This document shows, piece after piece, positions 38,834 to 41,022 of a stretch of DNA of 64,000 bases. Numbering within the stretch: the first letter of the stretch is position 1; the number at the start of each line of letters is the position of its first letter. The DNA lies in contig NW_026250410.1 in NCBI RefSeq assembly GCF_024521635.1, positions 1,054,001 to 1,118,000 of the forward strand, read 5' to 3'. Position numbers and translations under genes: made by a program. The notes under the pieces were generated by a model, which did not search any database, was not told where the DNA came from, and saw nothing but the letters and a program-made list of their open reading frames with translations. The stretch is from Tricharina praecox. Its lineage: Eukaryota.

Positions 38834-41022
38834 TCACATTCCGGGTGGCCGGCTGATGCCATACTGGGTTCCGGGAGGTCCGGCAGCGGTGCCTGGGGCG
38901 GCGCCGGGCGGGCCGGGCTGCTGGGCTTGCGCGTAGTATGCTTGGTCTATAGCTCGGTCAGTATATGCGCAAGATGAACATGTGAAGAACACTCACAGTA
39001 CTGCATGTATGCGGCGTATCCACCGTACGCAGCATACGGATCCACTCCACCAGCATTGGCATAGTACGCAGCGTAAGGATTGTATGCGGCCGCGGCGGCA
39101 GCAGGGTCGACTCCTGTGGGAGAGGCAGAAGGCGGAGGGGGAGGGGGCGCCGCAGAAGACGGTCCGGTTGGAGGCGGGGGAGGGGGCGGGGGTGATCCAC
39201 CGGTTGGCTGCTGTTGTTGCTGGTTGGGGACGTAACCCGAGCCGCCGCCGCCGCCGCCGCCACCACCACCAGCACCGTAGCCGGGGAAGCGCGTTGGCTG
39301 CGGCTGAGACTTGTGCTCCTCATACTGCAGCCGAACCGAACCTACTAGATCCTCACAAAGCTCCTTGGCGCGTTGAACCTCGCCGGGATCAGGACCGCTG
39401 TAACACGTCAGTAATGTCCCTCGCTGCAGAAAGGCGGGTGCACGTACGTTACGTGAAGGTACAACGGGTCATCGCTCTCCTCAGTACCGTGCTCTCTGAA
39501 CCCGGAACCACGGCCTTTGATCTGAACACGACAGCGAGTCTCCTGCTGGATGTGCTTGACGTACTGACCACCGTGGCCCACAACAGACGCGCGTAGGTTG
39601 AATCCGGGGATAGGCTCCAAACCAACTGGTATCCTCTCCTCGGGCCACTTGCGCTGTAACACAATTCCGTCAGCGCTGTGCCGTGGCCACCTCCACTAGG
39701 GATATACCAACCCTGCCGTATTCATCTCGCTCCACCGGCTCTGGTGGCTCCCGTCTCCGGAAGCGACGCTCATCCACAAGGTTGGGAAGCTCTTGTTTCA
39801 TGAGGTCCTCAATCTTCGCGACTGCCTTTTCGAGACCCTCCTTCGTGGTGCTGGTGATATGTAGGTAAAGCGGGGGATTCTGTATCCATCAATCAGCAAC
39901 CAACCATAGTAAGCAGGACGGGTGATCCCATACCGCAGGCGTCGCCATAGACTTGTCAGGATAGTAGGCTCCTCGGGTCGTCACATCTTGAAATCAAACT
40001 GCATGAGCAAAACATAGTCCTAAAAGGTATTGAGAAGGTGAGAAGGAGCGTACCCGCGCCAGTTTCTTCTTTGATCTAAGTAGGCACGGATGGAAGTCAG
40101 CGGCAAGACACGTAAGGGTTTTGTGCCATCTGTAATTGCACAGATGACATTTTAGTTCTATCATCACTACAGAAAGGTAAAAAGCTGGATGTCACATGAG
40201 TGCAACAACCAGTACCACCACCGAACAATAGGGAGGGAGGGGAGGATGAGAGGTGAGGTGAGGAGTAAGATGATGTATAGTCCAGGACTCGGAGGAGCTT
40301 TACCATTTTCTGAGTAGCACCCTTGGTCAGCGTATACCGGTTCCTAAGATCATTGACTTCGATGTCCTTGATGTAGTCGCCATCCGCGATGTACATCTCA
40401 CTGCTGAACGTGTTGGTAGCCGGGGGACTCGATGACTTGCCGATGCTCTATTGAACCGTCCAGTCAGCCTCCGCCCAAGTAGAGTATCACCAACATGAGG
40501 GGTCCAAACGCACCGAACGAATGGGGGGAACATCGACGTGTTGAACACCACGCTTCGCCTGGATCTGCGCATTGATCCTGGCAGCGGCCGCAGCTGTTGC
40601 GAGTTAGTTATACCCAGAATACGCGGTAGCTGTGGTGGTAGAAGCAGTGGTGGGTGGTACGAACCCGCAGCGGCAGCAGGATCCACAGCCTTCTTGACTA
40701 CAGGCTCGGCCGAGGGAGTAGCGGACGAGCGAGCAGTGACGGTGGTAGGACTCTTGCTACGGCGACGCGAGGAGCTTGCCGGTGAGCGAGAGCGGCGGTC
40801 TTCGCGTGGGTGGTCACGCTCACGTTCACGTTCACGATGTCCATGTCCAGTTTCACCGCGGCGATCGTCCCAGCGCGAGCGGCCAGAAGAACGTTCGCGA
40901 TCGCCACCATCCTCTCCTCCTCCACGGTGAGAATGTTGGTCTCGATCACGGTCGAGTCGTGGGTCCCTGGGTGCATCGTCCCATTTACTGCGCTTCCGGC
41001 GGTCGGGAGAGCCGTCCGTCAT
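38834..41022 (-). CDS. KH-domain RNA-binding/splicing protein (KHDC4/BLOM7-like), multi-exon
   Basis: RS/RD-rich N-terminus with RSKWD/RSRWD motifs; DGDYIKDIEVNDLRNRYTLTKGATQKMIKEETGADVTTRGAYYPDK; PPLYLHITST; FNLRASVVGHGGQYVKHIQQETRCRVQIKGRGSGF; Y/P/G-rich tail ending PPGM*. Confidence 0.9.

Follow-up and report, generated by a model that had tools for sequence, protein, structure and literature searches.

Why should the gene of a KH-type splicing regulator carry one intron far longer than its neighbours, placed directly before an exon of only 22 nt? The question is raised by a stretch of 64,000 nt from Tricharina praecox (NCBI RefSeq assembly GCF_024521635.1, contig NW_026250410.1, positions 1,054,001 to 1,118,000 of the forward strand), here called the window, in whose numbering all coordinates below are given. 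The gene lies on the minus strand, with its ATG near 41020 and its stop near 38835, and its eight introns measure 50, 50, 58, 54, 67, 228, 66 and 71 nt; the 228-nt intron is referred to as intron 1 and the 67-nt intron behind it as intron 2. A sequence-only reading of the window had proposed that the long intron is a structured switch by which the gene diverts its own transcript into nonsense-mediated decay (NMD). In our reading, to which we assign a probability of about 0.6, intron 1 ends in two tandem 3′ splice-site modules, of which the conserved upstream one is unproductive and would give a plausible NMD substrate.

Judged by sequence, the host gene encodes a KH protein of the KHDC4/BLOM7/RIK family, KHDC4/BBP-like in character. 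Pfam domains were scored on the database protein P0001 (source name Tricharina praecox, Pezizomycetes), which is 100% identical across the query exon and contains PF22675 (KH-I_KHDC4-BBP; 1.1e-40, 137.8 bits with a cut-off of 30) and PF23469 (KH_12; 2.6e-33, 114.5 bits with a cut-off of 27). These scores, both above the Pfam cut-offs, bear out the earlier identification of a KHDC4/BLOM7-like splicing-factor gene, and relatives carry source names such as ‘KH domain containing protein RIK/BLOM7’ and ‘Pre-mRNA splicing factor khdc4’.

The upstream coding exon (40304..40447) ends in ...LTKGATQKM in phase 0, as seen in P0001 and in RNA contigs of the runs X3, X4, X5 and X7. The donor GT at 40303-40302 (GTAAAG, 40303-40298) follows ...ACT CAG AAA ATG, and intron 1 (40076..40303) runs from there to the final acceptor TAG at 40078-40076. 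Next come the microexon ATCAAAGAAGAAACTGGCGCGG (40054..40075, encoding IKEETGA plus one G), in whose region P0001 reads ...TQKMIKEETGADVTTRG..., then intron 2 (39987..40053; donor GTACGC, branch motif GCTCAT at 40008-40003) and the next coding exon, (D)VTTRGAYYPDKSMATPA (39934..39986), which is present in P0001 and in the RNA contigs. The RNA evidence consists of contigs assembled from four runs of four studies, a material that drops rare forms. The joint 40075|40304, which skips 228 nt, is found in contigs of 4/4 runs, and the joint 39986|40054, which skips 67 nt, in those of three of the four (X3, X4, X5). Because contigs carry joints on both of its sides the 22-nt microexon is real, and so is the 228-nt phase-0 intron, as the sequence-only reading had reconstructed them; the positions it gave on the minus strand for the donor, the acceptors, the stop stack, the hairpin, GCTGAC and the retention stop are all correct. 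One X5 contig matches about 38 nt at 40299-40336 and has 255 unlike letters on both sides; it probably represents the conserved exon end as found in another organism.

How general this arrangement is can be seen in contigs from metagenomes of the Joint Genome Institute (JGI), which were scanned with an alignment of 20 orthologues. The scan gave 277 stretches that encode a relative, of which the best 80 were analysed; their taxonomy is a proxy taken from the nearest named proteins (54-85% identity), which belong to six classes of Pezizomycotina, namely Pezizomycetes, Dothideomycetes, Lecanoromycetes, Leotiomycetes, Eurotiomycetes and Geoglossomycetes. Among these best 80 of 277, the motifs ...LTKGxTQKM and VTTRG are both present, 232-395 nt apart, in 59 loci. 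All 46 distinct sequences of the 59 loci have GTAA (GTAT in L019/L020) directly after ...TQKM, and all 46 contain the microexon as ATCAAAGAAGAAACTGGCGC.G followed by GTACG. A further 11 loci are cut-off genomic pieces or were missed by the motif pattern, and nine of them show the arrangement partly or fully while the other two (L011, L068) start within intron 2; L052 does not cover the place. Every genomic-type relative that does cover it has an intron at this position except L008, L034 and L065. The last two have no intron here. In L008 (2872-3225), a single lineage with only 54-55% identity to its nearest proteins, ...ATQKQ is followed by a short intron and this by IKEETGADITTRG in a single exon, so that the microexon is fused to the next exon and there is neither an intron 2 nor a tandem acceptor.

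Within intron 1, conservation was assessed in a 35-row MAFFT alignment of representative orthologous introns (A2). Columns conserved in at least 90% of the rows mark the donor, a donor-proximal motif, an internal branch-like motif, an internal AG (AG1; in the window CAG 40130..40132, with the AG at 40131-40130), the final branch-point motif GCTGAC (BP2; 40096..40101), a single T at window position 40086 between GCTGAC and the final acceptor, and the final TAG. An AG stands at the AG1 column in 31/35 rows, and the remaining four have one within 14 nt. The internal branch-like motif, C-T-x-A, is CTTAC in 22 rows, CTCAC in five, CTAAT in two and CTGAT in two; BP2 is GCTGAC in 31, ACTGAC in two and GCTAAC in two; the final AG and the intron 2 donor GTACG are each present in all 35. 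Spacing is equally regular: the distance from AG1 to the intron end, which is the length retained if AG1 is used, is 45-56 nt in 35/35 introns (54 nt in the window), with 24-32 nt between AG1 and BP2 and 14-22 nt between BP2 and the final AG. Upstream of the AG1 module the intron varies, from about 100 to 240 nt, and the median pairwise identity of the intron middle is 0.45. The conservation is thus one of splice-signal-like motifs and their spacing, not a long ultraconserved block of the vertebrate kind. Set against so variable a middle, the AG in 31/35 rows, the C-T-x-A columns and the fixed spacing argue that the alternative site AG1 is conserved beyond neutral expectation.

The internal branch point of the window itself is ambiguous, because two candidates compete for the role. 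L028 shares CTAAA (40155-40151), and L063, L012 and L080 have CTAAT or CTGAA at a similar distance; MAFFT aligns to the CTTAC column not this motif but GTCAT (40148-40144). The microexon too is under constraint: its codon identity is 0.79, compared with 0.59 and 0.56 in the flanking exons, and such additional synonymous constraint would fit a purine-rich enhancer.

A donor-proximal motif, CTGAT, accompanies these elements about 25-36 nt from the donor, its T and A being conserved in at least 90% of A2. In 30/30 introns outside the Pezizomycete-like group (L006-L078) it forms a branch-like module within the first 33-49 nt of intron 1, with variants CTGAT, CTGAC and CTAAC and the branch A at +19 to +36, and 28/30 also have an AG no more than 60 nt from the donor, usually 8-9 nt further along. 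The Pezizomycete-like sequences lack the module (0/5), the window (40244-40303) included. None of the transcripts examined uses it as an acceptor, and it might serve as a decoy, as a binding site or as a third acceptor.

Direct evidence that AG1 functions as an acceptor comes from six of the best 80 loci, which are spliced, cDNA-like contigs; as intron 2 has been removed from them, they are copies of spliced RNA. Three of the six (L001, L002, L004) are productive and read ...TQKM|IKEETGAD. In the other three (L003, L005, L014) the donor joint leads into a piece of intron (51, 53 and 55 nt, respectively), after which come the microexon and the following exon. In alignments with the nearest genomic relatives, L024, L076 and L075, these retained pieces begin exactly after ...CTACAG, ...GATAG and ...GATAG, and the AG that is joined is in each case the homologue of AG1, with a CTTAC-type branch motif upstream. 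All three contigs, which represent three different organisms by their nearest proteins, reach an in-frame stop within 11-16 codons. AG1 is accordingly shown to be a conserved site that is used as an acceptor in three other lineages, and we infer that the species of the window uses it as well. Of the earlier proposal, what stands is an unproductive internal acceptor, since a conserved AG leading to a premature stop is used in three of six spliced contigs; what does not stand is its location, which is 40131-40130 and not 40168-40167. One of the three contigs, L005, also has a stop within the upstream exon, a TGA at about 100-115 in place of the GGA or GGC of relatives in ...LTK-G-STQKM; this one contig shows it, and a faulty assembly or a dead allele may be the cause.

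What would such splicing produce in the window? The AG1 form would keep a 54-nt segment (40076..40129), beginning ATG GCA CAA AAC CCT TAC GTG TCT TGC CGC TGA, and would stop at this TGA (40099-40097), with five exon junctions downstream. The stop lies inside BP2 and is the in-frame stop of both the AG1 form and full retention, the frame of the latter being open over 40097..40447. Across A2, use of AG1 as predicted from the aligned column would lead to a stop before the microexon ends in 32/35 introns and to a frame shift in the other three. By the exon-junction rule, a stop upstream of exon junctions is likely to trigger NMD, and because of its five downstream junctions the AG1 mRNA is a plausible substrate that would be degraded by this route. 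The internal AG is directly followed by GT in 0/35 introns, which argues against a second, recursive removal of the retained piece. Recursive or stwintron-like splicing was rejected on this count and because the three spliced contigs keep the segment although intron 2 is gone.

We therefore picture a choice between two acceptor modules of opposite consequence, some 50 nt from each other. The downstream module (GCTGAC 40101-40096, TAG 40078-40076) would join the exon to the microexon and lead to the full protein, and the upstream module (branch point near 40155-40144, CAG 40132-40130) would leave the last 54 nt in the mRNA, with the stop at 40099-40097. Since the 24-32 nt between AG1 and BP2 roughly match what U2 small nuclear ribonucleoprotein (snRNP) occupies upstream of a branch point, the two modules may exclude each other. 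In the window a hairpin would hide AG1, the use of which may be low or depend on opening of the stem. The ratio of the two forms would be a regulated quantity, possibly set by the encoded KH protein itself. This role is suggested by the KHDC4/BBP-like family membership, by the properties of human Blom7alpha and by runs of C in the intron. Overexpressed human Blom7alpha is reported to have changed 3′ splice-site choice in a minigene (PMC2781463), and the motif reported for it from SELEX (systematic evolution of ligands through exponential enrichment) is the C-rich (U/A)C2-6(U/A) (PMC3483155). Runs of at least three C occur at 2.00 per 100 nt in intron 1 middles compared with 0.64 in intron 2 and 1.10 in whole loci, their density across intron 1 being 1.6-2.0 per 100 nt, and CCC is found between AG1 and BP2 in 24/35 introns. 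In the window the variable intron middle contains a C/U-rich tract, read from the sequence at 40230..40270, which by analogy may be linked to C-rich binding of the Blom7alpha type.

Several observations weigh against the two-module reading. The segment retained by use of AG1 shows, as a whole, no better conservation between relatives than intron 2 (median pairwise identity 0.66 and 0.65, respectively, with shuffled controls at 0.55-0.57). The branch motif of the window that is homologous in the MAFFT alignment, GTCAT, is off-consensus. AG1 itself lies in the window inside an 11-bp stem with a pairing probability of 1.00, which may mean that it is little used here. The alternative form is known from three assembled environmental contigs, and no internal AG is used in the contigs of the four T. 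praecox runs; as these drop rare variants, the absence of an alternative joint is silent rather than negative, and the contigs have no cover inside 40109-40262, where they are uninformative on a small RNA or a rare isoform. Finally, C-runs are enriched to a modest degree, and introns are expected to be rich in pyrimidines in any case.

The sequence-only reading had located the switch further upstream, in the acceptor CTTTTTACCTTTCTGTAG (40167..40184, AG at 40168-40167), the stop stack TGA TGA TAG AAC TAA (40152..40166) and a regulatory hairpin (40124..40149), described with arms UGUCAUCUGU (40149-40140) and ACAGAUGGCA (40133-40124) and a loop at 40139-40134; ViennaRNA folds it as 11 bp, pairing 40149-40139 with 40134-40124 around a loop at 40138-40135. 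These features are striking by chance expectation. Four stops in five codons arise in 2/3000 shuffles, and the hairpin, at -13.8 kcal/mol the most stable 30-nt stretch of the intron, is matched in 2/300 dinucleotide shuffles, although both were picked post hoc from the 64-kb window and the rates are uncorrected probabilities. The polypyrimidine tract with YAG (as CAG) is also kept in L028/L032, the nearest relative, whose protein is 73% identical to P0001 over the summed blastx matches. Across the 35 aligned Pezizomycotina introns, however, acceptor, stops and hairpin are not conserved. The AG at 40168-40167 is present in 4/35 rows compared with 31/35 for AG1, and even close relatives differ there (TAG in L012, TGG in L063). 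The commonest letters at its columns are GG (12/35), part of a TGTGG motif in other classes, and TGTAGTGATGA of the window is aligned there to TGTGGTGATCA or TGTTTGGAGATGA. Other classes have, upstream of the internal branch point, a G.GAT(G/C)A motif to which the window's TGATGA aligns; exact TGATGA stands in 2/35 rows, and the full stop stack occurs in the window only (1/35). As the stack lies upstream of AG1 it would be spliced out when AG1 is used, and since a single stop suffices for NMD, stacking has no known role. The proposed junction from donor 40303 to acceptor 40167 is absent from the RNA contigs, which drop rare forms.

The hairpin fares no better as a conserved switch. In L028/L032, whose introns are otherwise nearly identical to the window's as judged by eye, its 5′ arm is replaced, with CTTCACCCGC opposite ACAGATTGCA and 4/10 pairs left, again by eye. 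For the five Pezizomycete-like sequences RNAalifold finds no consensus pairs around the internal AG, and over the 35 introns its only consensus structure is a 4-pair stem at the boundary of the microexon and donor 2, without compensatory change. Nor is folding around the internal AG generally stable in the 35 sequences (median z +0.48, with 1/35 below -2). We read the upstream AG and the stop stack as this lineage's probable version of the motif that lies upstream of the internal branch point elsewhere; stop stack and hairpin are real and unusual, and confined to this lineage. The 4-pair stem, ACUGGCGCxGGU (window about 40047-40058; columns 396-407 of A2), takes in the GU of donor 2. Judged by eye, CCAC upstream of the donor-proximal branch motif might pair in several sequences with the GTGG of the TTGTGTGG block, and no claim is made for this pairing. 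Another CAG, at 40185..40187, is a possible lineage-specific extra acceptor whose frame would end at TAG 40169-40167; an AG stands at its columns in 2/35 aligned rows, and no RNA contig supports its use.

A switch built from the acceptor at 40167, the stacked stops and a regulatory hairpin is for these reasons very unlikely. More serious, though still unlikely, is the proposal that the internal branch point and AG are kept for the sake of productive splicing, which they would assist in an unusually long intron ahead of a microexon, for instance by bringing U2-type factors near the true acceptor, the form with the stop being a tolerated by-product. The conserved columns are indeed splice-signal motifs at a fixed spacing to the microexon, the synonymous constraint on the microexon (0.79 compared with 0.59 and 0.56) fits a need for splicing enhancers, and the donor-proximal module (30/30 introns, with an AG within 60 nt of the donor in 28/30) suggests that the multiplicity of signals may itself matter; the contigs of the window's species, moreover, contain the productive form only. 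Yet the unproductive form makes up three of the six spliced contigs, which is much for a by-product that NMD should clear, and L008, with its short intron 1 and fused microexon, indicates that the gene can manage without the arrangement. For the species of the window one might go further and suppose that the intron has no function, being merely long, with internal AGs that are inherited and unused cryptic sites. The exclusively productive joints of the four runs, the burial of AG1 in a stable stem and the loss of the donor-proximal module in the Pezizomycete-like group (0/5 compared with 30/30) are all compatible with this. We consider it quite unlikely, as AG1, the 54-nt spacing and the in-frame stop are intact in the window and in sequences of the L028, L012 and L080 types, and rare isoforms would be invisible in the contigs.

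A long intron may also house a small RNA, and the fact that intron 1 is so much longer than its neighbours lends a point to an intron-encoded box C/D small nucleolar RNA (snoRNA) at about 40171-40092, with GTGATGA as box C and CTGA at 40100-40097 as box D, 60 nt apart. Both boxes are present with snoRNA-like spacing, TGATGA and CTGA recur about 69 nt apart in L028/L032 and L063, and in Rfam the box-C end is matched weakly and in part by snoU30 (16.3 bits, E = 4), the best hit on the correct strand. This match is far below the 45 bits of the snoU30 family, however; all hits in 39900-40450 are sub-threshold, and the window contains no Rfam match at gathering score. The CTGA is part of the final branch-point motif in all 35 introns, with or without TGATGA, whereas exact TGATGA stands at the aligned columns in 2/35; of the close relatives L012 and L063, the former has TGGTGA and the latter TGATGA, and L080 has TGATGT about 40 nt from CTGA. 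There is no terminal stem, the flanks CTTTCTGTAG and CTTCCATCC being non-complementary and the minimum free energy fold pairing neither with the other. The longest Watson-Crick match to eukaryotic 18S/5.8S/28S ribosomal RNA (rRNA) is 9 nt in the window, 10 nt in L028 and 9 nt in L063, and is equalled or beaten by 39, 20 and 41 of 60 shuffles, respectively; the ribosomal DNA (rDNA) used for this guide search came from eukaryotic units in prokaryote assemblies (found by primer motif and confirmed by Rfam, with L131 as the complete unit) and is not the organism's own. Having failed on Rfam family, box conservation, terminal stem and an rRNA guide of at least 10 nt, a box C/D snoRNA was rejected as highly improbable. 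The rDNA itself yielded a separate observation: L131, L123, L121 and L130 are complete or partial eukaryotic units in contigs of prokaryote assemblies, likely as contamination, with group I introns in L131 (large subunit) and L121 (small subunit), and a single 24-kb contig, on which the primer site occurs twice at a distance of about 10 kb, is the source of both L131 and L137.

Returning to the two tandem modules, a bolder extension of this reading can be put forward tentatively, as a doubtful idea. The intron might be an old, subphylum-wide sensor in which the KH factor, resembling branch-point-binding proteins, reads branch-like modules in its own pre-mRNA and feeds back through competition between branch sites. 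The modules would number three in most classes (25-36 nt from the donor, internal and final), and the protein would set the ratio of the productive acceptor to the unproductive one 45-56 nt upstream, without a poison cassette exon. The lineage of the window would have remodelled the upstream half, losing the donor-proximal module and gaining extra AGs, the stacked stops and a stem that hides AG1.

Gene models reflect poorly what happens at this intron. Among 177 predicted proteins that contain ...TQKM, 94 have the productive form, 73 continue into intron sequence left unspliced and 10 belong to other models, and none of the 177 has the tail expected from the internal acceptor. The 73 that enter the intron read V-N-T/I..., corresponding to GTAAAT..., and six of the 10 others pass from TQKM directly to NPPLY, leaving out the microexon and the exon after it. 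In Colletotrichum the models give TQKM-VNTPVLTLQ-DVTTRG, a hint at the same intron start in Sordariomycetes. With public gene models often wrong here, the microexon and the alternative form are easily missed in annotation. P0001 itself disagrees with the RNA contigs at two introns (window 40594-40664 and 38947-38996). It lacks ...SSATPSAEPVVKKAVDPAAAAAAAAAR..., which the joint 40593|40665 of the contigs restores, and its end reads ...MQYCECSSHTKHTT... in place of the ...MQYYQAYYAQAQQ...RPPGM that results from the joint 38946|38997 and matches the orthologues. Elsewhere in the gene, a GGC/GGT repeat (window 39231-39284) encodes a glycine run that is absent from the orthologues P0002-P0004.

Unproductive splicing of splicing factors is textbook knowledge in animals and plants. 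The statement in the sequence-only reading that no such event is described in fungi was too broad: NMD-coupled retention of a long intron has been published for srp2, the SRSF5 orthologue of Neurospora crassa, with NMD sensitivity shown (Lareau and Brenner 2015, PMC4379411). As described there, srp2 resembles the present case in being a fungal splicing-factor gene with an unusually long intron at a conserved position and an in-frame stop in the alternative form, the assumed purpose being control of the level of the splicing factor. The srp2 gene retains the whole intron, the sequence of which is reported as not notably conserved among Aspergillus species (PMC4379411), whereas the KH gene appears to use an alternative 3′ splice site with an internal branch point and AG conserved across classes. 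Like the SR, hnRNP and SMNDC1/SPF30 genes of animals and plants, for which poison exons and unproductive splicing are described and feedback by the encoded protein is reported as shown for several (PMC11357089), it is a splicing regulator with a conserved route to a stop-containing form of its own mRNA. Unlike those genes, which in that account mostly use cassette exons within long introns and long conserved blocks, it has tandem 3′ modules before a microexon, two in number and three in most classes, and no cassette. Human KHDC4/Blom7alpha, of the same Pfam family, is described as shifting 3′ and 5′ splice-site choice when overexpressed and as binding C-rich RNA (PMC2781463, PMC3483155), and among the papers listed by a literature search there was no report of its self-regulation or of an unproductive isoform.

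Two further systems share superficial traits with the intron. Box C/D snoRNAs offer RUGAUGA and CUGA 60 nt apart in a long intron of a housekeeping gene, but here box D is a branch point, the boxes are not conserved, and there is neither a terminal stem nor an rRNA guide. Stwintrons, as reported from Pezizomycotina (PMC6616335), likewise place multiple sets of splice signals in one fungal intron; they require that an inner intron interrupt one of the outer intron's splice signals, and recursive splicing requires regeneration of a donor at the first joint, while here GT follows the internal AG in 0/35 introns. A search of the literature on KHDC4/BLOM7/KIAA0907 and on conserved NMD-linked splicing in filamentous fungi and Pezizomycotina, which covered articles outside the supplementary tables of NMD-target studies, found no description of the event.

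Fungi splice by intron definition, and the anatomy of this intron, with tandem acceptors before a microexon conserved across classes, is unusual. A discrete acceptor of fixed geometry, kept across loci near six classes and used in environmental transcripts, contrasts with the whole-intron retention of srp2. At about 230 nt, the intron would offer a compact and genetically tractable model for tandem 3′ splice-site choice and for the inclusion of a 22-nt microexon in fungi, and such a model could show whether a KHDC4/BLOM7-type factor controls its own level. To us the arrangement looks like a built-in throttle on the gene's own output.

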